A stretch of 51,184 nucleotides of DNA from a virus (Duplodnaviria > Heunggongvirae > Uroviricota > Caudoviricetes), in the IMG/VR virus record IMGVR_UViG_2585427745_000020. The stretch is one strand, 5' to 3'. Shown piece by piece: positions 8,638 through 51,184 of this stretch. The notes beneath the pieces were generated by a model. That model ran no database searches. It was not told where the DNA came from and saw only the letters and a list, made by a program, of their open reading frames with translations. The position numbers and the translations under genes are program-made. Within the stretch, counting starts at the first letter, position 1. Every line of letters starts with the position of its first letter.

Positions 8638-10746
8638 TTACTCCCGATCCATTCCGCTTAGCGATGCCACAATCCCAACCCTCGCTAAGCGCTGAAACTC
8701 TTCGTTTCCGACGGTATCACGTATCGCTTTTACAGCAGCTTTATTTGCCATAAATCTGCGTTCAGCCGCCGCTAATGCACCATCACTTGCCCCAACCTTA
8801 ACTGCCTTTGTTGCCTCTTGAACAGCCTTTTCAATAGCGTAACGACCACTGCGAGATGCAGCTAACTTTTCTATCGTCCCTTTAGCTATAGATCCAGAAA
8901 TAGCCCCCACAACACCGCCAACAATCCCTCCACCAGTGGTACCAACAATAGCCCCTGATGTTGAATTGCCTATTGCATTGAGAACTGTCATGACAGCTTT
9001 TGGCAGTCCTTGCTCAAGAGAGTTAATTGCCGGTATAGAGCGCCCCGTATGCTCTACATATCGCAGTGGTCTGGTTGCTGCTCTGGCAAGGTCGCTGTAT
9101 GCCCTAGCAATCTTACCCATTTCTGGCGAGTGCTTGCTAATGGCAGTAATATTCTGCGGCGTAAGGATCGACGCTATATGGAATACGCCAGCAGACTCTG
9201 ATTTACCGCCACGCACCCCTTGCGATACCGCATCTTGTAATATTGATGCAATTGCTGGAGATCGCTCAGACTCTGGCAGTGCGCCAATAATCTGATGAAA
9301 CTTTCCTGTCCCACTTTTTGATGAATTTTGCAAGGCTTTAATACCATCAGTGACTAACTGATCAGTTGCAAGGTTTCTAAACGCAGCTTCAGCCTGTTCT
9401 TGTGCTGTAAATCTTGCTTTTGACAGATCATTAGCTTTTTGCCAGTCATCAAGAAAACCGCCATTTTGAGCCATTATGCGCATATCTTCCGTTGCTGCAT
9501 CACGAAGCTCCGCCATGCGCCTTGCCGTATTTGCCTCACCAGACCTTATATACTTCTGCTCAGCGTCAGCAAGTTTACTTCGCCATGCCTTCATGGCATC
9601 AAACGTGATTCCTTTTTTACCAGTTTTAGCATAAGCAGATGCAAATTGTTTCATCTCAGGAGTTAGCGGCATACCAGCCAAAATATCACCCTGAATTGTA
9701 GCGTTCAGGTTTGACATTCTGGCCTTTGCGTCAGGCATCGTGGAGCGGACGCTATCCCATGCTGCCTTTTCTGAGTTCTTCATTTTATCAATACTTGCTA
9801 AAACTCTTTGTTTTATGGCTGCACTTTTTTCTGATGCAGAGCCAGCCTCAGCACCAAGTTCATCAAGTGCTGAGTGGAATTTCGACTGTATTTCACTAAA
9901 AGCCCTAGTATGTGCATCCTGAACAATTCCTGGTTCGGATGCCAATATCCCTTCGGCTTGTGCAATTCCACGACTTCCAGATCGCATTCCTGGTGTTAAT
10001 GCGTTTATATCAATTCCAGCAGACTCAGCCGCTTTTGCTACATCTTCGGACACATTAGCGGCCTGACTGGCAATTGACTGACGCCCAGCACCTGACTTTG
10101 CCATCCTGGAAACATCATTAGCAGAATTCAGTGCTGCACCACCAAGAGCCTGTGAAACCCTTGGCGCAATAACGCGCCCGACACCTGAAAGAACGCCTTG
10201 AGCACCAATATTGATACCACCGTTAATGGCAGCATTTTGTGCAAAATCACCCTCCTGATTTGCAGCATCAGCAAGAGAACCGGCAATCATGTTTCCTGCG
10301 GAACCGATGTCTCCTGCGAGCTTTGCTGGCGCTCCAGCAGCTTTTGCCGCTGTGCCAATTGGCAGGAGATACCCACCAATTGTTTCACCGGCTTGCGCGT
10401 AAGGGTCTGTCGGTCGATCGACTGGACGATAGACATCATCCAAAACCTTGGGGCCACCAAGCCCCTGGCTGATTGCATTAATCAGACTTGCGCCACCCTG
10501 CAATACGTCAAATGGTATGTTTACCAGACCACGGCCAGCCTGTTCTGCAATTTGCCCTGCGCTTTGACCACCAGTGAGCCAGTCAGTAGCTTTTCCCACC
10601 AGAGATTGTTCTTCTGGCTGCGATTGGTTTTGAGTGGATTGATCACCAGAAGACAGCATCTGAGCAATGCGACGTGCTCCCTCAGTATCGCCGGCAGCAT
10701 CAGCATTCCTTAACGCCGTCATCAACTGTTCACGACTATAGGCCAT
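8638..10746 (-). CDS. Internal/ejection protein (P22 gp16-position)
   Basis: 702 aa Gly/Ala-rich protein at the end of the virion operon, in P22 gene order. Confidence 0.7.
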
Positions 10747-12020
10747 TACTGCCCTCCGAGATATTTATTAATCAGGTCATCATCAGAAAGCTGCTGTTGA
10801 GACGGTTGTATGTCCTTCCCGTATTTCTGTTGCATACGTTTCTGAGCCATCTCAGTGGTTTTTATGATTGTTTTGATAGCTGCTCTGGCTGATTTTTCAG
10901 ACTGATTTGGGGACAAACTACCAATAGCATCCATTACCTTTTGCCCCTCGGCATTACTTAAAGCCCCCATCCCTTTCATCTGCTGAATGCCAGATAAGAA
11001 TCCCTGAGATTTCAGTGTGTCAACCAGAGTTTCTGTATCAGCAGCCTCTGTTCCTGGAATGAATCTACTCGATAGTGGATTTAGGTTTGTTCCGAAATAT
11101 CCCGTGAATCCTGGGCTATTAAGAACTTTTGTAGCCGTCTCTATCGTTCTGGAGAGATTATCCATTCCAGAGTTGTACGTATCGGCCTTATCTCGCTTTG
11201 CCTGCTCCATAGCTTGCTGATTCTGCAATCTCTTGTCCTGCAATTCAGCAAGTTTTAAGGCATTAGTTTCATTTGCGATGAGTCTGTCGTATTTCTTGTC
11301 CTCTAATTCCATTCGACGAAGATTGACATTTTGTTGCGCAATATTGTTGCTTGCCCACCCTCTGGCATTTGTCATGTCATTATTACGGATTGTTTCGTTA
11401 ATTCTTTGCTGCTCCTGCTGGCGACCAACCATCTTGTCCTGTAAATCCCAATACTTTTCATGGCCTAATGCAAACTGACCATATTGTCCGATAAGTTGTG
11501 ATGTTGCTTGTGGGTCTTTTTGATACATGCTGAGGAGTTGTTGTGGGTCTACCCCCTGATTAGACAATCTGGTTGCATTGTTTCCAATCCACTTGCTAAA
11601 TGCATCACCACCCATCATGGAGGCAATTTGACCGCCTGCCGCTAGATTGCCAATTTCATCACGCTGGTCTTCGTCTGCCCACTTCATACCAGACTGAATC
11701 TTCTCTAATTGACCAGGATATTTGGTCATCAGATCTCGCACCTGCTGTCGATCACCTGACTGGATGGCTGCCGCATATTCTTTTTGGAATGCAACATCCG
11801 CTTCCTGTTGCTTTGCGGCTTGATATGTTTGAGCGACACTACCAAGCCCCTGCAACGCCTGAAGGCCGATGTTATTGCGACCTGAGCGCTCCATTTCGTT
11901 GTTCTGGCGAATATAGGCCAACGCCTCACTTACATCACTTGCCTTTGGCGCATTTGAGTTTTGCCCACCGATACCAGCAAGAAAGCCGCCTGAGTTGATT
12001 CCTTGTTGCCAAGTAGCCAT
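10746..12020 (-). CDS. Internal/ejection protein (P22 gp20-position)
   Basis: 424 aa; coupled ATGA overlap with neighbours; position and composition. Confidence 0.7.
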
Positions 12021-14111: not shown

Positions 14112-15529
14112 TACTCAATCCTTATCTGGCAGCCTGACAGAGTGACAGGTGACTTCGTGATAACGCGCAATTTGAAGCCGACATTTTTCCTGATGCGCCC
14201 GACTCGCTTCCACAAAACACGTTTGTCGTAAACGAAAGGTTCATTCTGCTCAATCATCTGCTCACGACCATAATTTATGCCGTCAGTGGTTGCAGAGAGG
14301 AACAGGCGGTCGGCGTACTGCGCAACTCCAGTTGACGATTCAACTTCAAGGTCGAAAACTCTGGCGTTATCCGCTTTGAACAACGGAGTAAACAGCAGGT
14401 GTTCCTGCTGCTTGTCGTACTGGCTGCTGATATCGAACTGCAATTTCCCGGTCACGGATTCCAGCTTATCGCCGCACGTTATCTGATTTCCTTCGTAAAT
14501 GAAGTCAATAGCGCGGTACGCATCGTCATATAAGCCTGTTTTCAGCACACACCATTGTGGGCCATTGGCGCTTGAAGATGCGTCGTACACCAGAACATGG
14601 CGCGGCAGGTGAATAATCAGCAACTCATGAGCATCAAACCGCAACGATTCCATCACGCCATCAGCCAGTTCATCAGCAGTGTAGGAGCGGAGGATTTTCT
14701 CAATGCTCGCGCTGGCGATTGGTGATACCTGACCGGAGCCGATGATGTATACAGACGGCGCACCTGTTGCCGGATTGCTGATGAACGCATAAGAATCAGC
14801 GAATGGTGTTTTGCAGTAAGTCCCGGCAATACCTTTCTGCACCATCAGCGATGGCTGTGCGACATACAAAGCGGCACCAACGGTGGTTTCCCCCGTCAGG
14901 GAGAAATATTCAATCGTCGATGAGCCAAAGCAGACGATGAAGTCTCGCCATGTTCCGATGCCGATGATGCCGTCAGGCTGTGATTCTGCCCGATATTGTG
15001 CGCTGTATCGGTCAGGATGCGATTCGTCTCCAAGGTCAGTGATAAACCATGAATCGGTGCCGTCTTTTGACCACGCATAACGGCCACGTAAGCGCGTAAT
15101 GTCGCGGACTGAGCCTAACTCGTACTGTGTGAATCCGCTGTCTGTAGGCCAGTTTGAGACGGTTTTAACCGTGCCATCATAGCGATACTCGACCAGTTGA
15201 CCATTAACGCCTACCGCCTGTGATGTCCGACCATGCGCCATTGATACGCGACCACTTCCGGCAACATCACCGACTTCACTTTCTCCTTTGTAGAGCTTGC
15301 CACCACAGACACGATAAACAGCATTCTGCGCCATGTTGTACTCGACTCCGCGCGATACACCGTTCACATCAGAACGTTTGGTAATGCCCGGGAATGAGCG
15401 AAGATATCCGCTGCTGTTCAGGATTTCTTTGGGTGTAGCCAACATATTCACTGGCAGATAGTCGATATAGTCGGCGTTTCGAAAGTCTTTGCCGACACCT
15501 TTCATAAGCGGAAGTTGCTGAATCGGCAT
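14111..15529 (-). CDS. Tail accessory factor gp10
   Basis: 472 aa; [49 protein letters not shown]... near-identical to P22 gp10. Confidence 0.9.
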
Positions 15530-15538
15530 TTATTCACC

Positions 15539-16000
15539 TCACGTACTCGGATCATCTTTCTCGATGTAAAACCGATTCCACGTAAACGCGCTTTTGTTAC
15601 CACTACCGCGAGGCATGTCATTTCGCCGCTCAAGTGGTGGTATTTTGGTTAAAGCGATACAGATTGTTTGATATGCACTGTCAGCAGCGGTAAGGAGAGC
15701 GTCTGACGGCTGAATGACGTTATCCATGCACACTTGCACAGCGAGTTTCAAAGCGACGCCATCATTTGCCCATGCAGGGATACCTGAGTCATCGTCTGGT
15801 AACGGCATGATGCCGTTTTCTGTATCAGCAAACTGATACCCAAGCTCGATACCTTTAGCCTGCCATGCTGCCATCATGTCTTCGAGGTCATTAATGGCAT
15901 CTTCAATCGCCTGAGGGTCAGCATCTGTCAACGTGGCATTGGAATACAGCCCGGCTTTTCGTAAAGCCTTTAGAACGAGATCACCCTTCGTTTTCGCCAT
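15539..16000 (-). CDS. Tail accessory factor gp4
   Basis: 153 aa; MAKTKGDLVLKALRKAG...TLTDADPQAIEDAINDLEDMMAAW resembles P22 gp4. Confidence 0.8.
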   Translation of the reverse strand: MAKTKGDLVLKALRKAGLYSNATLTDADPQAIEDAINDLEDMMAAWQAKGIELGYQFADTENGIMPLPDDDSGIPAWANDGVALKLAVQVCMDNVIQPSDALLTAADSAYQTICIALTKIPPLERRNDMPRGSGNKSAFTWNRFYIEKDDPST

Positions 16001-16169
16001 CTTCTTCCGCCTTAGCCACTTTTTGCTTCGCTGCGGTTTCTTCAGGAGTTTTTACCCAGCCTTTTTTCAGGTGAGATTTAACTTCTTCGTCATCAACAAT
16101 GATGTAATCGACAGCAAACTGACCACAGGTGATCATGTTGCCAGGCTTATAGAGCATTGTTCGTGCCAT
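15981..16169 (-). CDS. Small hypothetical protein between coat and gp4
   Basis: 62 aa from ATG 16169 (MARTMLYKPG...) with GGAGA RBS; the longer track ORF overlaps the coat terminator. Confidence 0.4.
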   Translation of the reverse strand: MARTMLYKPGNMITCGQFAVDYIIVDDEEVKSHLKKGWVKTPEETAAKQKVAKAEEDGENEG

Positions 16170-16180
16170 TGTCTTCTCCC

Positions 16181-16203
16181 AATAAAAATGGGGCCGAAGC
16201 CCC
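16181..16203 (-). terminator. Hairpin terminator/attenuator after the coat gene
   Basis: GGGGC-CGAA-GCCCC stem-loop (16190-16203) followed on the minus strand by AUUUUUAUU. Confidence 0.55.
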
Positions 16204-16210
16204 ACCAAAA

Positions 16211-17464
16211 TTACTGCCCGGCAATAACGATGCCCGTATATTCAGGAACAAGTACAGAGCAACCGTACAGAGTGGTGAAACGAGCAGTGGTTACGCCTTT
16301 GATGTGGTCGAAGGCGTAAGACATGATCAGCGTAGCGCCCTGCTCGGTGGTTGCTGTCATTACCTGTGGACCCTGACCAGTCGGGAACGCCAGCTTGCCG
16401 TACATCAGTTCAACAGAACCATCAGCCCAGAACAGGTTAGCCGGTGCGGCATTTTTGTTGAGAATGGTAATTGCTGCACCATTTGCCGCGTTAGCATCAA
16501 CGTTTGCATATGGACGGCTGGCGACATCTGCGTTGTCAGGCGGCAGAATTTTCGGGGAGATAGTTACTGTCGTTCCGCTTACTGCCAGAACGCGGAATAC
16601 CTGCGGCTGCCCGGTGGTGTCTTTGGTGATCTGGTGTACAGAATTCACGCCAGCAATGGTGAACGCATCGCCAACCTGCAACCCAGATGCAGATACCGTA
16701 ATAGTCCCCTGTCGGTTATCCACTGGCATATCGTTGACATCTTTCGCTTCAACCTTGTGCGCAGGTTCTGCCGCCAGCGTCAGGGAAGTTGCTGTACCCT
16801 TCGGAACACGACCAGAAATATCGGTCTTGTAGCTATCGAAGGACGCAACCGGAGGGATCTGCGCTTTTTCGTATGCTGTCAGGGTTGCACCCTGAGCATA
16901 GGCACGGTGACCAAGCTCGCCAGCAAGGTCTTTGTAGTTGAAGGGGTTCCAGAAAGAGCGACGGTTGATACCCTGAGGTACACCAATCGCCGTCATGGTG
17001 GCATCAATACCTGCCGCACAGTTCCACAAATCACGGCCCTGTGAACCTGTGGTTGAGTCAGCCATCGTGATCACGTTAGTAGCACGCTGCGTCACCATGG
17101 AAATCAGGTCAGAGTCAATCTGTGCAGCAAGGCGCATACCTGCGGCGCGACCAGCTTCAGTTTTATGTTCCGGGTCACGCATTTCACGCGCATCCAGAGT
17201 GTACAGAATGTTTTTCGGCTCCTTGAACACAGAAGGAACAAGGCGCTGAACCAGTGCTGTTGGCGTTTTGCTGCTGAGGTCGAGGCCTTCCTCAATGTTC
17301 ATGTGGTAATGCTGCGGACGATACAGAACATCACCTGCTCGCTGCATTGCTGTATCACCGGGACGGAATTTTTTAGCGTTACGGGAAACTACGCAGGCGG
17401 CCTCAAAGCCTTCAACGTAGTTTTCGAACATGATTTCAAGGTCTTTTGCTAATTGGTTAGCCAT
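16211..17464 (-). CDS. Major coat protein (P22/Sf6 gp5-like)
   Basis: 417 aa; follows the scaffold gene in the canonical order; size and position. Confidence 0.85.
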   Translation of the reverse strand: MANQLAKDLEIMFENYVEGFEAACVVSRNAKKFRPGDTAMQRAGDVLYRPQHYHMNIEEGLDLSSKTPTALVQRLVPSVFKEPKNILYTLDAREMRDPEHKTEAGRAAGMRLAAQIDSDLISMVTQRATNVITMADSTTGSQGRDLWNCAAGIDATMTAIGVPQGINRRSFWNPFNYKDLAGELGHRAYAQGATLTAYEKAQIPPVASFDSYKTDISGRVPKGTATSLTLAAEPAHKVEAKDVNDMPVDNRQGTITVSASGLQVGDAFTIAGVNSVHQITKDTTGQPQVFRVLAVSGTTVTISPKILPPDNADVASRPYANVDANAANGAAITILNKNAAPANLFWADGSVELMYGKLAFPTGQGPQVMTATTEQGATLIMSYAFDHIKGVTTARFTTLYGCSVLVPEYTGIVIAGQ

Positions 17465-40613: not shown

Positions 40614-40629
40614 TTGCAGGTTCGATTCC
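40614..40629. repeat. tRNA T-arm-like fragment (TTGCAGGTTCGATTCC), 16/16 identical to argW positions 1054-1069
   Basis: Exact 16-nt match to the argW variable-loop/T-arm segment that precedes the att core; the match stops where the att core would start. Confidence 0.5.
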
Positions 40630-40922: not shown

Positions 40923-40938
40923 CTGCAGGGGACACTTT
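40923..40938. repeat. attR core of the argW prophage (CTGCAGGGGACACTTT; 13/16 identical to attL)
   Basis: Direct repeat of the argW 3' end downstream of torI; also serves as the left junction of the tandem satellite. Confidence 0.6.
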
Positions 40939-41121
40939 AAAGACCTTTCTCTACATTTCACTTCATTACATAACCACTTAAAAAAACAGTAAGTTATCAC
41001 CGAATCGGCCTGATTTTCATTTCAGTTAATTTCATGACATTACAACCTCGTGATGGTATAAGTGATGGTATTCCCCAGTTCGATATGCAGATACCATCAA
41101 TTTACCAAAATGAGTACAGAT

Positions 41122-42396
41122 ATGGCCATTAATGTGCTTTCCCCCAAACAGATAGAAAACGCCAAGCCGAAGACCAATGATTACAAACTTACCGATGGAG
41201 GGAGTTTGTATCTACTGGTACGAAAGACTGGTGGAAAATACTGGCGTATGAATTATCGTTTTGATGGAAAACAAGTGACATTAGCATTAGGGGTCTACCC
41301 AGATGTCTCACTTGCAACAGCGCGGAAACGGCGTGATGAAGCCAGGCAACTACTAGCCGATGGTCGTGATCCTCGCGAAGCAAAGAAACCCAAAAAGGAA
41401 GACCCAATTTCCCCCACGTTCGAGAGTGTTGCCAGAGAGTGGCATAGTGGAACGATGGGGCATCCTGAGTGGAAAGAGATCACCCGTAAAAAAATTCTCC
41501 GAGAAATGGAAAACCACCTCTTTCCTGCCATCGGTTCAAAGCCTATCGATACGCTCAAAACCCGTGACTTGATGCCGATGCTGGTTGAGATGACTGAGAA
41601 AGGAATTGGTGCCACAACGAGCCGTGTAAAAACCACTATGACGAGCATCTTCCGTTATGCCGTGCAACGTGGAATTGTCGATTACAACCCTGCCCACGAT
41701 CTAAAAGGTGCAATTACGGCCCCCAAAGTACGACATCGCCCCGCACTACCTCTCGAACGTTTACCTGAACTGTTAGCGAAAACGAGAAGTTACACGGGAA
41801 GACCATTGACTCGCCTAGCAGTTCTCTTTTCCCTGCACACTTTTGTGCGATCCAGCGAACTACGACATGCCAGATGGGAGGAGATCGACATTGAAAATGG
41901 GCTATGGACGATACCAGGACAACGTGAAGAGATCGCAGGGGTTAAATTCTCAGATCGGGGTGCAAAGATGGGGGCTGCTCATTATGTCCCGCTATCTAGT
42001 CAGGCTATCGGGGTACTGGAGGATATAAGGAAAATCAGTGGTGAATATCTGCTGGTTTTTCCCGGTGACAGCAACCCATATAAACCGATGAGCGAAAACA
42101 CAGTTAATAAAGCACTGCGAACGATGGGTTACGACACTCAAACTGATGTTTGCTTGCATGGGTTCAGGGCGATGGCCTGCTCTGCACTGACCGAATCAGG
42201 ACTCTGGTCACGCGATGCAGTTGAACGGCAGATGAGTCACCAAGAAAGAAACGAAGTGCGGGCAGCATATGTGCATCTTGCGCAGCACATGCAGGAACGC
42301 CGCAGAATGATGCAATGGTGGTCTAATTATCTGGAACTAAATAAGGACGAATTCCATGCTCCTTATGACTTATCAGGTATTAACATTATCAATTAA
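41122..42396 (+). CDS. Tyrosine integrase of the satellite (P4-type annotation family)
   Basis: ORF 41062-42396; by alignment with IntS the likely start is MAINVLSPKQIENAKPK (41122; 41110 also possible); about 424 aa. Confidence 0.85.
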   Translation: MAINVLSPKQIENAKPKTNDYKLTDGGSLYLLVRKTGGKYWRMNYRFDGKQVTLALGVYPDVSLATARKRRDEARQLLADGRDPREAKKPKKEDPISPTFESVAREWHSGTMGHPEWKEITRKKILREMENHLFPAIGSKPIDTLKTRDLMPMLVEMTEKGIGATTSRVKTTMTSIFRYAVQRGIVDYNPAHDLKGAITAPKVRHRPALPLERLPELLAKTRSYTGRPLTRLAVLFSLHTFVRSSELRHARWEEIDIENGLWTIPGQREEIAGVKFSDRGAKMGAAHYVPLSSQAIGVLEDIRKISGEYLLVFPGDSNPYKPMSENTVNKALRTMGYDTQTDVCLHGFRAMACSALTESGLWSRDAVERQMSHQERNEVRAAYVHLAQHMQERRRMMQWWSNYLELNKDEFHAPYDLSGINIIN

Positions 42397-44546: not shown

Positions 44547-44831
44547 ATGAATATTTCAAACGGGCTCAACGGTGCTCAGGGCCACACTTTGCCTGAAAAA
44601 CACAATACCGGTGCTTTTGCCTATGGGTTGTCAGAGGACAGTTTCGGAAAGCTGACCCGCGCAAGAAATGCCTGCGACATGCTCCAGCTTCTCTTTTCTG
44701 AATACCCGTCTCAGGCCGGAGCACTGGACGCAGGCTGTGCGCCTGGTGTCGCCGCGCTGATGGAGTACCTGCTGGCAGATTTGACGGATATTGCACACAG
44801 CTGCGCACTGATTGAAGGAGGTGCCAGATGA
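44547..44831 (+). CDS. Hypothetical protein
   Basis: 94 aa; ATGA overlap with the next gene. Confidence 0.5.
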   Translation: MNISNGLNGAQGHTLPEKHNTGAFAYGLSEDSFGKLTRARNACDMLQLLFSEYPSQAGALDAGCAPGVAALMEYLLADLTDIAHSCALIEGGAR

Positions 44832-45211
44832 ACCAGCCGCAGGTTTCCATTTTCCCGGTAGAAATGACCACCGCGCTTTACCGGCGGGCTATTGCTTCAG
44901 CATGGCGGCAGAAAATGCTGAACGAAACTGGCAGTGATCAGTATGGTCCGCACAGCCTGACAGTGGAGCGTATTGAAATGGCCATTGCGCTGCATATCGA
45001 GTGCGTACTGATTAACGAGTACGGCGAAGTGCAGGGCGCCGCTGCCGCGCTGGCACTGCTGACTGACATGCTGGAGCCGTCACTGCTGACCGCGCCGCCG
45101 GTACTGACCGCGCGCGGCTGTGAAGTGATGGCGGAGATGTACCGCACGCTTCCGGCGGCCTTTGATGACTTCTGCAGTACCGGTGTGACGTTGTATGAGG
45201 GGGAAGTATGA
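44828..45211 (+). CDS. Hypothetical protein upstream of the primase
   Basis: 127 aa; coupled to the primase gene (ATGA overlap). Confidence 0.5.
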   Translation: MNQPQVSIFPVEMTTALYRRAIASAWRQKMLNETGSDQYGPHSLTVERIEMAIALHIECVLINEYGEVQGAAAALALLTDMLEPSLLTAPPVLTARGCEVMAEMYRTLPAAFDDFCSTGVTLYEGEV

Positions 45212-47880
45212 CAATACAGACGGTTACGCAGGTTTCAGCCGCCGCACGGGGGAAATGGCCCGTTATTCTGCAGATGCTGCGTATTGATGTACCTGAAAAC
45301 GGCAGGCACGGTCCCTGCCCGAAATGTGGGGGCAAGGATCGTTTTCGCCTTGATGACCTTGACGGGCGCGGGACGTGGATCTGCAGCCAGTGTGGCAATG
45401 GTGACGGTCTGGATCTGGTTAAGCTCGTAACCGGTTACAGCGTCAGAAAGGCTGCGCAGGAGGTGGCGCAGGTGCTTAATGTGCCGGATATGCAGGAACT
45501 GCCTGTTAAGCCTGCCAGACAAAAAGCCCCTAAACGCGACATGGGTCTTACCGTGGCGGCGCTGATGAAAGAGAGCCACACGGGAGAAAGCGCCTATCTG
45601 ACAGGAAAAGGGTTCGCCGGATACCCGGCCTCTCTGACCGGAAGCGTACAGCATATCAGCGGTAAGGATTTTCCTGCCGGTTCCCTGCTGTTACCACTCA
45701 CGACCAACACCGGAGCCGTGACCGGTGCACAGCTTATCGCCCCGACGGGTGAAAAAAGCATACTGCCCGGCAGCACGATGAAAGGCGCGTTTGTGTCGCT
45801 CAGCCCGTTACCGTCTGAACCACCGATACAGGTGGTGATTACCGAAGGTTACGCTACGGCGCTGACGGTAAGCCAGCTCACTGCCGGATGCGTAGTGGCT
45901 GCCATATCTGCGGGCAACCTGCCCAATGTGGCGCAGTCGCTGCGGGCACGCTGGCCTGAGGTAAAAATTATCATCGCCGGTGATAACGATTTTCAGGACG
46001 GGGGTGAGAATCCCGGCAGAGCCTTTGCTGAACGGGCGGCAAAAGCTGTTGGCGGCTGGATGACGCTGCCACCAGGAGAGATTAAGGCTGACTGGAATGA
46101 CTTTCATCGGGAGCACGGTATTACCCGTGCCCGTGAAGCCTTTCGCAACGGTCTGGTACTGTGCGGGGAAAGCCGCACGCAACTGCCGCACGGGTTCCGT
46201 CTTACCCAGGAATATCTCTGGTATGAAAAGCAGGTACAGCGCAACGGTGAGACGGAGATCCAGAACGTCAAAATATGCAGCCCGCTGCGCGTGACGGCAA
46301 TCACCTGCGATGCCGATGGCGGTAACTTCGGACGACTGCTGGAATGGGAAGATACGTGGGGTGAGTGTCGCCGCTGGGCGATGCCGATGGAAATGCTGAG
46401 CGGCAGTGGTGAGGAACTGCGCCGGGTACTGCTGGTTAACGGGCTGTCTTATATCAGCACCACCGGTGAGGCACGCGCACGCCTGATGGAATATATCTCA
46501 CTGTGTAAACCGGAACGCCGCGTGACCTGCGTCAGTCGTACTGGCTGGCATGGTCAGGTTTACGTCCTGCAGGATGAGGTCAGCGGTGAAGGTGCAGAGG
46601 GTGTCATTCTCCAGACCACTTCCGTGCAGGGGCGTGATTTCCGCGTGTCGGGCACAACAGAGGAATGGCGGGAGCATGTATCCCGCTACTGTACCGGCAA
46701 CTCCCGCGTGGCATTTGCTGTCAGCCTGGCCTTTGCTGCACCACTGTTACGGCTGGTTGGTATGGACGGCGGCGGCTACCACCTCAAAGGGGAATCGACA
46801 GACGGTAAGACCACCACCATGAAAGCAGCAACCTCCGTCTGCGGCGGGCCTGACTACTGGCAGACATGGCGGGCCACCGGCAACGCGCTGGAGGGATGCG
46901 CCAGCCGCCGCAACGATGCCGCCATGATGCTTGATGAGATCCGGGAAGTTGACGGACGCGAGGCAGGCAATATCGCCTACATGCTGGCAAACGGTCAGGG
47001 CAAGGGCCGTGCCGGTACGGACGGTGAGCTGCGTACCCGTAAGCAGTGGCGCCTGTTGTTCTTTTCAACTGGCGAGTTGTCTCTGACCGAACATGCGGCA
47101 AAGGCCGGTGAGCGTACTTTTGCCGGGATGGAAGTCAGGATGATCCAGATCCCCAGTGATTCCGGGAAGTTTGGCGTTTTTGAGGAGCTGCACGGCTTCG
47201 ACAGCGGCAAGGCTCTGGCAGAGCATCTTGAATGGGCCACGTCCTGCTACTACGGTTCGCCGTTCCGGGAGTGGCTGAAAGCACTGACCGCTGATCTTAA
47301 CGGACTAACGGCACAGGCAAAATCGCTGATGAAGGAATATGCTGCCGCCCTGACTCCGAAAGATGCAGGCAATCAGGTGGGCCGGGCTGTGAACCGCTTT
47401 GCACTGGTGGCGATGGCAGGTGAACTGGCAACCCGTCTGGGTATCACCGGCTGGCCTGAGGGTGAAGCACTGCGGGCAACCCGCGTCTGCCTGAACGCAT
47501 GGCTGAAAGATCGCGGGCACACCGCCAATCAGGAAGATATCGCCGCACTGGAGCAGGTTCGCAGTTTCTTTACCGCGAATCAGTACAGCCGCTTTGCAGA
47601 CTGGTATGACGAGCGCAACCGCCCCGGCAATATGGTGGGCTGGCGAAGGGTGGAGAAAGGCAGTACCGCGCAGGGCACGGAAGCTGTCACTACGTTCTAT
47701 GTCATGCCGTCCGGCTGGAAAGAAATCTGCAGGGGATTTGACCCGCGCAAGGTGGCGCGTCTGTGCGCAGATCGTGGATACCTGCTGCCCTCCACTGATG
47801 GCAAACTCCAGACAACCATTCGCCCGCCAGAGATGAATCCCCGCAGGCTCTATGTCTTCAACAGCGAGGTGCCGGGTTAA
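45208..47880 (+). CDS. Primase-helicase (P4 alpha-like: zinc ribbon, TOPRIM, D5-type NTPase)
   Basis: 890 aa; N-terminal CPKCGG...CSQCG zinc-binding motif; Walker A-like GESTDGKTT; typical satellite replicase architecture. Confidence 0.9.
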   Translation: MTIQTVTQVSAAARGKWPVILQMLRIDVPENGRHGPCPKCGGKDRFRLDDLDGRGTWICSQCGNGDGLDLVKLVTGYSVRKAAQEVAQVLNVPDMQELPVKPARQKAPKRDMGLTVAALMKESHTGESAYLTGKGFAGYPASLTGSVQHISGKDFPAGSLLLPLTTNTGAVTGAQLIAPTGEKSILPGSTMKGAFVSLSPLPSEPPIQVVITEGYATALTVSQLTAGCVVAAISAGNLPNVAQSLRARWPEVKIIIAGDNDFQDGGENPGRAFAERAAKAVGGWMTLPPGEIKADWNDFHREHGITRAREAFRNGLVLCGESRTQLPHGFRLTQEYLWYEKQVQRNGETEIQNVKICSPLRVTAITCDADGGNFGRLLEWEDTWGECRRWAMPMEMLSGSGEELRRVLLVNGLSYISTTGEARARLMEYISLCKPERRVTCVSRTGWHGQVYVLQDEVSGEGAEGVILQTTSVQGRDFRVSGTTEEWREHVSRYCTGNSRVAFAVSLAFAAPLLRLVGMDGGGYHLKGESTDGKTTTMKAATSVCGGPDYWQTWRATGNALEGCASRRNDAAMMLDEIREVDGREAGNIAYMLANGQGKGRAGTDGELRTRKQWRLLFFSTGELSLTEHAAKAGERTFAGMEVRMIQIPSDSGKFGVFEELHGFDSGKALAEHLEWATSCYYGSPFREWLKALTADLNGLTAQAKSLMKEYAAALTPKDAGNQVGRAVNRFALVAMAGELATRLGITGWPEGEALRATRVCLNAWLKDRGHTANQEDIAALEQVRSFFTANQYSRFADWYDERNRPGNMVGWRRVEKGSTAQGTEAVTTFYVMPSGWKEICRGFDPRKVARLCADRGYLLPSTDGKLQTTIRPPEMNPRRLYVFNSEVPG

Positions 47881-47914
47881 GGCTTTGCGTGAGTCTTATT
47901 TATTAAGGGTAACA

Positions 47915-48103
47915 GGTGAAACAGGTGGAACAACCGTATTTTACAAGGGCTGAACCTGTTTCACCTTCTGAAATAGTGAGGTGGAACAGATGTAACGCCA
48001 GCCAATCCGCTGTTCCACCTTGTTACCCGCGATGTTCCACCGGTGCAGTGTATATAAATACTTTATAAAACAAAGCAGTAACACATGTTTCACCTGTTCC
48101 ACC
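47915..48103. repeat. Iteron cluster (eight TGTTYCACC/GGTGRAACA octamers): ori/crr-like primase binding region
   Basis: Octamers at 47915, 47924, 47957, 47980, 48011, 48033, 48086, 48095 in both orientations, with an AT-rich block (48050-48075); resembles P4 ori/crr type I iterons. Confidence 0.65.
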
Positions 48104-48191
48104 GCATCAGGGACATAAAGCAGACTGAAACAGAGGGCATTTTTATCTGGCTGGCTTTCATAGCCACGTCTGAATAACCGCAAGCGCCCGT

Positions 48192-48209
48192 TGTGCCAGC
48201 CACCACACA
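48192..48209 (+). promoter_or_regulatory. Ogr/Delta-type late promoter dyad (TGT-N12-ACA)
   Basis: TGTGCCAGCCACCACACA about 73 nt upstream of the sid-like start codon. Confidence 0.5.
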
Positions 48210-48281
48210 CTGATCACCGATAGTGTGCTTGTGTCAGCCACGACACAATTGACGTAACGAACCAACCCGACAGGAGAAGTC

Positions 48282-49025
48282 ATGAACAACACCGCAGTGA
48301 ATAACAACCTTTCCACTTTTCCGGCTGTAACGCAGCGGGCACTGGAAACCATGAACACAGCCAGAAACGCATGGCTTGAAGCACGTCGTCAGCAGAAAGC
48401 GGCAGCGGATAATATTGCGACAATCCGCCAGCGTCGCGCTGAAATGGAAGCCACGACGAACACACTGAATGAGGAGTGGCGCACGCTGTTTCGTGAAAGT
48501 CAGGGCGTGGTCTCAAAGGAAATGAAAAAACTGCGCACGGAAATTGCGCTGGGACGAGAAACGCTTGAGGATTTTGATGAGCTGCTGGCGGCTCAGGAAA
48601 GCGAAAATGCACTTTTGCCGCAGAAAGCTGCAGAATTAGCCGGAAAGTATATCCACGCGCATAATATTCTTGTGGATATTCGTGCAAAACAAATCTGGGA
48701 AGATTTTATGCAGTCGCATGGAAAAGCGCTTATTCAGACGCTGAGCCTGCTTAAATCCACAATGGGCCGGGAAGCCAGTGCCGTTGTGGGTGTGGTGAAT
48801 TCAGTTAATGACCCGGACACAGTGCTGAAAGACTTTATTCATAAACATATCACCAGACCGGCTCTGGCTAACGATGCGATGCCTGAACAGGACCCGGTGT
48901 TTAAACTGGCGGGAATTGCCCCGGATTATGCGGCGCGTCTGGATTTCAGTAATCAACTCTCTCCGGCAGCTATGCATAAAATTAAGGTTCGTCAGGAACT
49001 TGCTGAGAAGGAGAAAGCAGTATGA
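48282..49025 (+). CDS. sid: Sid-like external scaffold / capsid size determination protein
   Basis: 247 aa; RBS AGGAGA; Psu/Sid-family motif (EDFMQSHGKAL); directly upstream of psu. Confidence 0.55.
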   Translation: MNNTAVNNNLSTFPAVTQRALETMNTARNAWLEARRQQKAAADNIATIRQRRAEMEATTNTLNEEWRTLFRESQGVVSKEMKKLRTEIALGRETLEDFDELLAAQESENALLPQKAAELAGKYIHAHNILVDIRAKQIWEDFMQSHGKALIQTLSLLKSTMGREASAVVGVVNSVNDPDTVLKDFIHKHITRPALANDAMPEQDPVFKLAGIAPDYAARLDFSNQLSPAAMHKIKVRQELAEKEKAV

Positions 49026-49573
49026 CGGCCCGAGGCACGCCTGACCAGGCACTTACCAGTTTTCGGAATGCCCGTATTCTGTGGGCCGGACATAGTGAGA
49101 GCCGAAAAGCCGTTGAACAACAGATAGCATCTCTCCTTGCTGCCACAGAAAAACCAGCAGATTATGCCCGACAGCTCGAATTACTGCGGGAACGTCTGGA
49201 TGTGCTGAAATGGCAAATTAACTGTGCTGCGCGCGAATGCATTTACTCGCAGCATTTACTGATGGAGGCCTGCACAGAAGCAGCTCTCAGCAATTTTATG
49301 CAGGCGAATGGGGCAGCCCTGACATCTGCACTGGCTCCGTTCCTGAAGGGACGCGGAGGGGTTGACGTTGCGTCCCGTATATTACGCAGTGCTCTGGTTC
49401 GCCAGCTGGCAATAACACCGCCTGAAATTGCCGGGGATTATCGTGAGATCCTGGATGAATCCGGTTTGATACCTGACCCCGGGATGATTCGTGATTGCCA
49501 GGACTCTTACACCCCGGCACAACATCTGCATTTTCAGCAACGCCTGAATGACATTAACGATATACAGGAGTGA
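49022..49573 (+). CDS. psu: Psu-like polarity suppression / capsid decoration protein
   Basis: 183 aa; KWQINCAA, SNFMQANGAALTSALAP and YTPAQHLHF resemble remembered P4 Psu blocks. Confidence 0.7.
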   Translation: MTARGTPDQALTSFRNARILWAGHSESRKAVEQQIASLLAATEKPADYARQLELLRERLDVLKWQINCAARECIYSQHLLMEACTEAALSNFMQANGAALTSALAPFLKGRGGVDVASRILRSALVRQLAITPPEIAGDYREILDESGLIPDPGMIRDCQDSYTPAQHLHFQQRLNDINDIQE

Positions 49574-49851
49574 TTTTAATGGCACTTAAATGTCCGGAAT
49601 GCGGTACAGTTGCACACGCCAGAACAGCAGCCTATGAAGCTCCGTCAGTTAAACGCTCGTGGTATCAGTGCCAGAATCTGGAATGTTCCTGCACATTTAC
49701 GGCACTGGAGAGTGTGGATAAGATAATCATGAAACCCCGGCGCAATGAACAGGAACCAGACAAATCACAACCCCCGGTAAAACAACAGCAAACGCTCAAT
49801 CGCTATGGCTCCGCGTCAAAACTGTCAAGCCGTCAGCAGATTCCTGTCTGA
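49570..49851 (+). CDS. Ogr/Delta-family zinc-finger late transcription activator
   Basis: 93 aa; CPECG...22 aa...CQNLEC zinc finger as in P2 Ogr and P4 Delta. Confidence 0.85.
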   Translation: MILMALKCPECGTVAHARTAAYEAPSVKRSWYQCQNLECSCTFTALESVDKIIMKPRRNEQEPDKSQPPVKQQQTLNRYGSASKLSSRQQIPV

Positions 49852-49871
49852 TTAGAAAAAACGCCCACGTA

Positions 49872-49897
49872 ATCCCGGTCGAGTACCGGGATTTTTA
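49872..49897 (+). terminator. Rho-independent terminator after the late operon
   Basis: 8-bp stem ATCCCGGT / ACCGGGAT with loop CGAGT, followed by TTTTAACG. Confidence 0.7.
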
Positions 49898-50335
49898 ACG
49901 CCTTTTCCCTGGCTGGCCTGAGAGCGCATGAGTGCATGTCTATAGCGCATGAAAACGCATGAACCTTATGCACCATTTTTGACGAGAAAGCCCTTGTGTG
50001 GTGGCTTCTGAGACGATTTATGAGGTGCATGAAAACCAGTCTGTTAAGCGAAGCGGGCAGGCGTGCGGGGCTGTTCGCATCAACATAAAAATAACGGGCT
50101 GATATAGTTATAAAATCAAATGAACTCTTTTAGTACGACATGGGTATGTGCGCCAGTAGCAACGTCAGCCCCCAAGCTTTCTATTGTTCTTTTCTGTTGT
50201 ACCATCAATACGTACCGATTAGCTCCTAAGCATCAATATCAGTTTGAACGTATTGCTTTGAACTAATTTTTAGATGATTTTTTTCATTAAAAAATTATAA
50301 TGTTGTAGATAAAAAGAGAATCTTATAGAGGCGTT

Positions 50336-51184
50336 ATGTCAAATAAAGTTGATGTTTTTTTGAGCCGAGTTAGCCATGTATCACAGTTTGTATTGGTGGC
50401 ATTTGCTATTTTTGGATATTTTTATACAGTAAGACCAATTTACCAAAAGGAACTTTTATCAGAAGAAATTGCAAAAAAAGAAGTTGAATTAAATAAATTA
50501 AAAACAGCAATGGAAAACTCCCAAAAATTTATAGAGAATAATAAAATCTTACGAAAAGAATTGGAGGGAAGCATTGCCAAACTTGATTTACAATACAAAG
50601 AATCAGAAGAAAAATTAAATTCAATAAATTCTGAACTAAGAAAAACTTTAAATGAACTAAATAAACAAAAGACCATTTCCAAAAGAGCGGTCAATGCAAA
50701 CAACAAGAATCTTGAATCTGTTTTCTGGGAGAATTTTTCGGGGCTAGTTGGAGTAGTTTATATTTCTAAGAGCACAGATTTTGTGAACAATACACTGGGT
50801 GACGCCAAAACAGCCTATAATACTCCTAGTAATTTATATATATCTCCTTATGATGCAATTAATGAAGCATTAAAAAATGGCAATCATAACTTTATCTCAA
50901 GTTCAGAAAATGTCCCTGAAAATATCCGCAACAAAATTCTAGCAAAGATCCGTCGCGCTATTGAAAAAAATAAGATTTCATTAACAAAAAAACCTATCGG
51001 TTTTGATGAAAAAATTAATAGTCTGATAAAAACTATAGAGTCAACTAAGTTACGCAAAAATGAAAACGAAATAATGAAAAATAACACTGCAGAAAGAGAA
51101 CTATCATCTTATATTTTCCTGATAAATGGTCAATCAAGAATCCGCGCCATGGATTTCTTAAAAGACATTCAACATTTAGACTAA
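50336..51184 (+). CDS. Hypothetical AT-rich cargo protein (N-terminal transmembrane helix, long coiled-coil)
   Basis: 282 aa; very AT-rich; perfect TATAAT at 50296-50301 and RBS AGAGG upstream; stop codon is the last three bases of the window. Confidence 0.55.
   Translation: MSNKVDVFLSRVSHVSQFVLVAFAIFGYFYTVRPIYQKELLSEEIAKKEVELNKLKTAMENSQKFIENNKILRKELEGSIAKLDLQYKESEEKLNSINSELRKTLNELNKQKTISKRAVNANNKNLESVFWENFSGLVGVVYISKSTDFVNNTLGDAKTAYNTPSNLYISPYDAINEALKNGNHNFISSSENVPENIRNKILAKIRRAIEKNKISLTKKPIGFDEKINSLIKTIESTKLRKNENEIMKNNTAERELSSYIFLINGQSRIRAMDFLKDIQHLD

Follow-up and report, generated by a model that had tools for sequence, protein, structure and literature searches.

Replication of phage P4, through its alpha protein and two sites in cis, ori and crr, is the usual model for P4-like elements. 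Another kind of origin is known from the Staphylococcus aureus pathogenicity islands (SaPIs), in which 6-12 iterons lie immediately downstream of the rep gene with an A+T-rich region between two sets; at least two iterons are present on each side, in opposite directions, and they are bound by the winged-helix domain of the Rep C-terminal domain (PMC9371898). SaPI Reps are self-loading helicases, and the SaPIbov1-type Rep falls in superfamily 6 (SF6) (PMC9371898). In the staphylococcal cassette chromosome mec (SCCmec), the DUF927 protein Cch is related to SaPIbov1 Rep, and Cch2 binds specifically to repeats just downstream of its own gene (PMC7581432). The phage-inducible chromosomal islands (PICIs) of Escherichia coli have the same origin design, and a plasmid carrying pri-rep-ori of EcCICFT073 replicated in a rep- and ori-dependent manner (PMC6092414). 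Here we describe a cluster of repeats directly downstream of the primase-helicase gene of a P4-like satellite, contained in IMG/VR virus record IMGVR_UViG_2585427745_000020 (Caudoviricetes); the window, below, is this whole stretch of 51,184 nucleotides. Judging from its sequence and by analogy with the islands, we consider it quite probable that the array, at 47906-48103, is a single SaPI/PICI-type vegetative replication origin of the satellite.

Results

The iteron array

The sequence TGTTYCACC occurs 11 times in the window, compared with 0.67 +/- 0.87 copies expected from dinucleotide-preserving shuffles (largest count, 4). Eight of these exact matches are packed into the 189 bp at 47915-48103, and the remaining three are scattered singles at 10381, 28092 and 30061. 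Five of the clustered sites read TGTTYCACC on the + strand (starts at 47957, 48011, 48033, 48086 and 48095) and three on the - strand (47915, 47924 and 47980); the strands in Table 1 are those of the complementary reading, GGTG(G/A)AACA. The outer sites form two pairs, each head-to-tail at 9-bp spacing, and the pairs face each other as 18-nt inverted arms, GGTGAAACAGGTGGAACA and TGTTTCACCTGTTCCACC. An A+T-rich block, which reaches 0.90 A+T in the 20 nt at 48050-48069, has six exact sites on one side and the distal pair on the other. Alignment with sister elements reveals four further, degenerate sites with a GTAACA/TGTTAC core that is conserved across sister clades; in the site at 47989-47997 the core is GTAACG and is invariant in part only. 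Together, the eight exact and four degenerate sites make an array of about 12.

A preliminary description of this DNA had reported eight TGTTYCACC octamers, in both orientations over about 190 bp with an AT-rich block, downstream of a satellite primase. The eight exact sites, far above chance, were confirmed, as were their orientations, the A+T block and the position directly after the primase-helicase gene of an element with sid-like, psu and delta genes; the repeat itself has nine bases, not eight.

The array is the only one of its kind. Allowing one mismatch, neither the 51-kb window nor the 11.5-kb element, present in full in E. coli PD4, has a second cluster, and no other direct-repeat family, type II decamers included, was found in 47881-48281. 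A scan for sigma-70 promoters and terminators returned nothing on the + strand inside the array, an Rfam scan of 47700-48400 gave a single chance-level match (E 0.34), and blastn of the array region against 50,697 phage records gave no match. Two open reading frames (ORFs), at 47916-48068 (+) and 47941-48210 (-), overlap the array; a coding role was rejected because the spacers carry 1-2-nt indels in sister sequences.

The absence of another cluster bears on the possibility that the array is a crr-like or copy-control element, to which the initiator binds while strand opening occurs elsewhere; the sites would then act as an enhancer, in handcuffing or titration, or as an autoregulatory operator. 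P4 crr likewise follows directly on the primase gene, and iteron arrays are generally known to control copy number in many plasmids. Such a scheme would, however, leave an 11.5-kb element without a second iteron cluster to serve as the true origin, and a secondary cluster is present in only 1 of 56 related loci (within the flanks covered). The array also has its own A+T block at a conserved offset, like functional SaPI and PICI origins (PMC9371898, PMC6092414). Because there is no other cluster and the array carries an A+T block of its own, we regard a purely regulatory role as unlikely.

The predicted initiator protein

According to Pfam, the product of the adjacent gene has a Zn-ribbon at aa 32-68, a Toprim_3 domain at 209-304 and a DUF927 SF6/MCM-like helicase at 330-612; its C-terminal region holds a predicted winged-helix-like domain (aa 772-890). 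BLASTP aligns it with P4 alpha over aa 5-322 only (38% identity, E 8e-49). For the DUF927 part, a profile search of PDB sequences identified instead 8tch, SaPIbov1 Rep (2.4e-17), and 5dgk, SCCmec Cch (5.5e-16). An AlphaFold2 model of aa 613-890 (predicted local distance difference test, pLDDT, 71, and ~84-92 over the last 120 residues) matched the same two structures in Foldseek, with E values of 1.4e-5 (probability 1.00) for 8tch and 3e-4 for 5dgk. For the model of aa 772-890 (pLDDT 92; predicted template modelling score, pTM, 0.83), 8tch was again the best match (E 1e-3, probability 1.00, TMq 0.6), followed by TcpK, the pCW3 relaxosome accessory protein solved with oriT DNA; the P4 alpha origin-binding domain was not among the top 50 matches. 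This model consists of two helices, of which 846-856 is the likely recognition helix, and then a beta-hairpin, which is the usual winged-helix arrangement.

From these profile matches and predicted structures, the helicase and C-terminal domain are homologous to SaPIbov1 Rep and Cch. By its domain composition, the initiator is a chimera in which a P4-type primase is joined to a helicase and DNA-binding domain of the SaPIbov1-Rep/Cch type. It is therefore by a SaPIbov1-Rep-like DNA-binding domain, and not by one of the P4 alpha type, that the iterons are probably read.

Comparison with SaPI, PICI and SCCmec systems

Every sequence-level feature of the SaPI origin design is present in the window array. 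As in the SaPIs and PICIs, the array is a single cis site that directly follows the initiator gene; its eight exact and four degenerate sites are within the 6-12 range, occur in both orientations and have an A+T block between two sets; the tandem pair at 47915-47932 is the inverted repeat of the pair at 48086-48103, with at least two facing sites per side; and the predicted structures give the protein a SaPIbov1-Rep-like helicase and C-terminal domain. There are also differences. The window helicase is fused to a primase of the P4 alpha Zn-ribbon/Toprim type, the element has the hijacking genes of P4 (sid, psu and delta) rather than those of PICIs, and its ~12 sites keep a fixed asymmetric layout (~9 / 3).

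SCCmec offers a further parallel. The DUF927 MCM-like helicase of Cch (5dgk) matches the window protein, and the Cch2 repeats lie just downstream of the helicase gene, as in the window. In contrast, Cch has no fused primase and belongs to a staphylococcal cassette rather than a phage satellite, and for Cch2, which is in the D5/SF3 family, only three 5-nt repeats are described.

Comparison with phage P4

In the annotated P4 record, crr (4291-4590) is separated from the 3′ end of alpha (4636-6969, minus strand) by 46 bp that hold nothing but a terminator, and the type I repeats of ori (9310-9413) end 170 bp before the sid ATG (9583); paired TGT-N12-ACA boxes precede sid at 9493-9510 and 9531-9548. 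The window array resembles both sites in its placement. It is 3′ of the primase gene, like crr, its first exact iteron starting 35 nt past the stop codon (47880), and ~180 bp 5′ of sid, like ori, its last iteron ending 179 bp before the ATG of the sid-like gene. Whereas the alpha and sid operons are divergent in P4, the alpha-like and sid-like genes are adjacent and co-directional in the window, and one array therefore fills both positions.

These placements, together with other likenesses, raise the question of whether the array is a bona fide P4-type ori or crr, homologous to one of them and composed of type I iterons read by a P4 alpha-type C-terminal domain. The window element shares with P4 a sid-like gene, psu, delta and a DUF5375/orf106 homologue; the primases have the same Zn-ribbon and Toprim Pfam domains at 38% identity; both have iterons in both orientations around an A+T-rich stretch, with tandem copies 9 bp apart; a Psid-like promoter with paired TGT-N12-ACA boxes follows the window array; and the window motif corresponds to the P4 octamer GGTGAACA with one inserted base. 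The resemblance does not extend to the defining features. The P4 octamer TGTTCACC has no exact copy in the cluster, all eight sites being TGTT(C/T)CACC 9-mers with one extra base. P4 has two cis elements 4.5-5 kb apart as well as type II repeats, compared with a single array and no type II repeats in the window. After its primase, alpha continues with D5_N, DUF5906 and Pox_D5, and in the window protein this helicase/DNA-binding half is replaced by DUF927 and a SaPIbov1-Rep-like C-terminus; hhalign of alpha aa 330-777 against the family alignment of the window protein gave a probability of 0.4%. With the whole P4 genome as query, blastn against the element gave matches in the integrase and the 5′ portion of the primase gene only, with nothing at ori, crr or cos and no similarity of the P4 ori and crr regions to the array region. 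Finally, close relatives of the window element use quite different iterons (GGTGTAACA, GGGGTAACA, CTGGTAACA); the likeness to the P4 octamer is therefore confined to one clade and probably coincidental. Since a P4-type assignment fails on octamer, two cis sites and alpha-type DNA-binding half alike, we consider it highly unlikely.

Several claims of the preliminary description must be revised accordingly. It had likened the repeats closely to the type I iterons that P4 alpha binds at ori and crr and, in keeping with that model, had looked to the primase C-terminal domain for binding; the comparison above does not support this P4-type reading. It had also held that the location differs from canonical P4, and in this respect the array is in fact P4-like.

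Related loci

With a 15-member family alignment, 78 loci were retrieved from a set of genomes in which each species is represented once, and 72 of these were scorable. A locus was taken to have a cluster if one 7-mer, counted on both strands together, occurred five or more times in the first 330 nt downstream of the stop codon. By this measure a cluster is present in 61 of the 72 loci (37-99% protein identity; median 8 copies), compared with 12 of 1704 control windows from the same loci, and the density of the 7-mer copies in this interval is 331 times that in the rest of the loci. The layout is conserved (+++ - ++ -- + ---): a doublet or triplet in tandem, spaced at 9 bp, opens it 25-45 nt past the stop codon, inverted singles and pairs come next, and a distal inverted doublet or triplet closes it at ~190-260 nt. 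The degenerate site at 47906-47914 in the window is the counterpart of the first member of the '+++' triplet in other lineages. This layout is kept from Enterobacterales to Burkholderiales and other Proteobacteria at 37-45% protein identity, and in most Enterobacterales loci the A+T maximum is 160-175 nt after the stop codon, the same offset as in the window.

The motif itself changes by lineage: GGTGGAACA, GGTGTAACA, GGGGTAACA, CTGGTAACA, GTGGATACA, CATGTAGTACA, GTGGGAACA, GGGTTAC, CGGTTAC, GGGGCA and GGGGACA were all found. The window's motif, GGTGGAACA, is used in its own clade and in one distant Serratia locus.

Upstream, a DUF5375 gene precedes the primase gene in many related loci and travels with the primase-ori module. 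Downstream, the genes vary (sid, delta, SRAP, ERF, GmrSD and unknowns) and are sometimes on the opposite strand; the array therefore follows the primase-helicase gene and not sid. This argues against an operator array at which some regulator of transcription distinct from the primase, such as the AlpA-like helix-turn-helix (HTH) protein of the element, controls the sid-psu-delta late operon or terminates or attenuates the alpha operon. The array does lie between two operons, ~90 bp upstream of the Psid-like promoter with its two TGT-N12-ACA boxes. Those boxes are nevertheless a separate conserved block, an operator would not typically have twelve sites facing both ways around an A+T block, and the scan of the + strand of the array showed neither a terminator nor a sigma-70 promoter. 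Since its place is behind the primase gene regardless of the neighbours, the array appears extremely unlikely to be an operator.

Some loci depart from the common pattern. Three of the 11 loci that lack a cluster in the 330 nt interval have one ~1.1 kb downstream (L038, Klebsiella spallanzanii; L046, Scandinavium; L062, Apirhabdus). In L038 and L062, an ORF (335 aa and 155 aa, respectively) lies directly after or overlaps the primase stop codon, and in all three loci 10-13 GTGGGAACA sites are found beyond the intervening sequence, so that the origin would be displaced by ~1.1 kb. In L049 (Brenneria), L050 (Serratia sp. Ag1) and L053 (Buttiauxella), an ORF of ~700 aa, measured from stop to stop, aligns only from window residue ~325, and the Zn-ribbon/Toprim primase therefore seems to be replaced or absent; L050, whose protein is 65% identical to that of the window, nevertheless shares the window iteron GGTGGAACA. 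One locus labelled Vagococcus sp., a Firmicute (L017, NZ_JBQPOM010000063.1), carries an Enterobacterales-type primase locus (66% identity) with a matching iteron array and is probably an assembly contamination or mislabelled.

Two more E. coli element types have the same design. The first (L081; E. coli ST131, NZ_OY019088.1 1207785-1226570) is a different element at the same argW site, with a DUF927 primase 73% similar at the DNA level. The standard layout recurs in its origin, with ten sites of the xGGTAACA type, mostly CTGGTAACA or GAGGTAACA; an ogr/Delta gene follows directly, sce7725/sce7726 and a 'P2 family phage major capsid protein' are annotated, and sid and psu are not. The second (L082; E. 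coli SCU-313) is an ssrA island in which an AlpA gene is followed by a primase-less DUF927 protein of 690 aa, ~200 aa shorter than that of the window. The array after this gene, at 10506-10760, alternates two related motifs, GGTGGTACA and GTGGGACA.

Signs of selection and of iteron specificity

Iterons and spacers were compared in an alignment of nine sequences from two clades (A and B), whose proteins are 90% identical between clades. Within the window's clade, 4 of 72 iteron columns are variable versus 34 of 133 spacer columns (Fisher p=2.8e-4), and overall the counts are 13/72 and 81/133 (p=2.4e-9). The central base accounts for eight of the 13 variable iteron columns: in each of the eight sites, one clade has G or A at this position where the other has T. 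Spacers and A+T block show free divergence, small indels included, and the block stays A+T-rich without keeping its sequence.

Changes in the iterons have parallels in the protein. Across ~65 proteins, the residue at position 866, which immediately precedes the first strand of the predicted wing, tracks the 5′ half of the iteron across lineages: it is Lys where iterons begin GGTG or GGGG and Arg where they read xTGG. Xenorhabdus proteins that are 97% identical have Lys 866 with GGTGTAACA and Arg 866 with CTGGTAACA. The two closest pairs of proteins that use different iterons are also distinguished at positions 846 and 887; the three residues are encoded at ~47743-47870 in the window. In sliding-window comparisons of close pairs with different iterons, the differences are mostly in the variable N-terminal 200 aa and in the last 90 aa. 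These patterns suggest residues 846, 866 and 887 as candidate specificity determinants, and the iteron sequence and DNA-binding domain appear to co-evolve, which would produce lineage-specific origin specificities.

The host element

By gene content, the element is a P4-like satellite, integrated at tRNA-Arg (argW). Its Pfam set comprises an integrase, the primase, two Psu-family proteins and Ogr_Delta, and the gene order on one strand is int ... alpha, ori, sid, psu, delta, which differs from that of P4. An identical element of ~11.5 kb is present in E. coli PD4 between tRNA-Arg (next to yfdC) and dsdC, with the core genes all on one strand and with an HTH regulator and an Icd-like gene annotated. 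Among 5426 complete E. coli genomes, 337 contain the ori region and 916 have relatives of the helicase gene. Coordinates are collected in Table 1.

Table 1. Sites of the proposed origin and neighbouring genes, in window coordinates (iteron strands refer to the GGTG(G/A)AACA reading; clades A and B as in the nine-sequence alignment)
Feature	Position	Strand	Basis or remark
Whole iteron array, proposed ori	47906-48103		8 exact + 4 degenerate sites around A+T block; starts 26 nt past stop codon
Degenerate iteron AGGGTAACA	47906-47914	+	9-bp register with next two sites; GGGTAACA invariant in clades A, B
Iteron 1, GGTGAAACA (TGTTTCACC on - strand)	47915-47923	+	Exact search
Iteron 2, GGTGGAACA	47924-47932	+	Exact search
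Iteron 3, TGTTTCACC on + strand (opposite orientation)	47957-47965	-	Exact search
Iteron 4, GGTGGAACA	47980-47988	+	Exact search
Degenerate iteron GATGTAACG	47989-47997	+	Sister class-A elements have GGTGGAACG at same place
Iteron 5, TGTTCCACC on + strand	48011-48019	-	Exact search
Degenerate iteron TGTTACCCG on + strand	48021-48029	-	TGTTAC invariant in clades A, B
Iteron 6, TGTTCCACC on + strand	48033-48041	-	Exact search
A+T-rich block, proposed DNA-unwinding element	48050-48076		Up to 90% A+T
Degenerate site, conserved GTAACA core 48078-48083	48075-48083	+	GTAACAC invariant in clades A, B
Iteron 7, TGTTTCACC on + strand	48086-48094	-	Exact search
Iteron 8, TGTTCCACC on + strand	48095-48103	-	With iteron 7, inverted partner of iterons 1-2
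Tyrosine integrase gene	41062-42396		Pfam; upstream of primase
DUF5375 gene, P4 orf106 counterpart	44828-45211	+	Pfam; overlaps primase start
Primase-helicase initiator gene, 890 aa	45208-47880	+	Pfam, profile and structure matches
Psid-like late promoter region, two TGT-N12-ACA boxes (48192-48209, 48233-48250)	48192-48250	+	Read from sequence
sid-like gene (Psu-fold protein), first gene downstream of origin	48282-49025	+	Pfam Psu, 2e-9
psu	49022-49573	Same as sid-like	Pfam Psu family
Ogr/Delta gene	49570-49851	Same as psu	Pfam Ogr_Delta

The two TGT-N12-ACA boxes are 41 bp apart, centre to centre, ~40 bp ahead of the sid-like ATG, and clades A and B both retain them. By analogy with known P2 and P4 late promoters, we take them to be, probably, the Ogr/Delta activator sites of a late promoter. 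This promoter region is separate from the origin and bounds it on the right.

The region after delta (49852-51184 in the window; 14153-16900 in locus L002) is A+T-rich and repeat-laden at 50264-50850. It contains two ORFs without Pfam matches (50336-51184+ in the window) and is possibly a cargo or defence hotspot. At the other end of the window, tRNA-Arg(CCT) at 1009-1083 is followed by ~40 kb (to ~40650) matching P22-like prophages, namely CUS-3 (63% coverage, 94% identity) and vB_EcoP_Kapi1. A 16-nt copy of the 3′ part of the tRNA is present at 40614, with a further fragment, CTGCAGGGGACAC, near 40928. Because the tRNA gene and its 3′ copies flank the P22-like stretch, prophage and satellite appear to be in tandem at argW; in E. 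coli PD4, the site is occupied by the satellite alone.

Discussion

By analogy with the SaPI and PICI origins, the repeat cluster is very likely the replication origin of the satellite. The preliminary description had likewise proposed a replication control region, and this part of it is upheld by the initiator-type gene next door, the layout conserved in 61 of 72 loci and the restriction to a single cluster.

A plausible course of initiation can be outlined from the island systems. In recognising the GGTG(G/A)AACA sites, the 890-aa product would use the winged-helix-like domain at its C-terminus (aa ~772-890), and initiator hexamers or a double hexamer could assemble on the two inward-facing tandem pairs and the inner sites. 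The A+T block would then be melted by the initiator, which may self-load as an SF6/MCM-like (DUF927) helicase and prime with its own fused P4-type Zn-ribbon/Toprim primase. Unlike in P4, no second cis site corresponding to crr would be involved.

Several observations weigh against the assignment of the array as a SaPI/PICI-type origin. First, the window iterons are 9 bp long versus 5-6 bp in SaPIs, and the A+T block is off-centre, with 6+3 sites on one side and 2+1 on the other. Second, the mechanism is transferred from SaPI Reps that are only 12-14% identical in the C-terminal domain. Third, 11 of the 72 loci have no cluster in the 330 nt after the stop codon. Fourth, the correlation at residue 866 draws on a small number of independent switches, and distant relatives do not all conform to it (L067 and L075 are exceptions). 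Finally, the P4/P2 cos 19-mer (up to three mismatches) was not found anywhere in the complete element, and given that it has no P4-type cos, the element may be defective.

Origins of this kind are not new, tests having been made in SaPIs and in one E. coli PICI, and no new principle of replication is revealed by the array. In the literature, we found no description of such an origin for P4-like satellites or for the Toprim-DUF927 family, and the census paper of P4-like elements does not discuss origins. What the window adds is a chimeric initiator, a P4-like satellite that lacks crr, and iteron specificities that form a natural series.

These additions have several implications. Although P4 replication through alpha, ori and crr is the customary reference for P4-like elements, a common lineage in E. 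coli uses a different initiator. A simple rule follows by which origins could be annotated next to DUF927 primase-helicase genes in many Proteobacteria. The proposed origin is also a compact experimental target, consisting of ~200 bp and one gene, and the closely related initiator/iteron pairs should be useful for mapping how self-loading helicases read DNA.

Finally, we suggest, tentatively, that the primase-ori unit may be a portable and reprogrammable replicon. Small changes in the wing and recognition helix of the C-terminal domain (e.g., K866/R866), accompanied by concerted change of all the iterons, would give rise to mutually orthogonal origins (GGTGGAACA, GGTGTAACA, GGGGTAACA, CTGGTAACA and others), and in this P4-like lineage the unit may have replaced the two-site ori and crr system with its alpha protein. 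If this is the case, several satellites or islands could coexist or compete in one cell without cross-activated replication.

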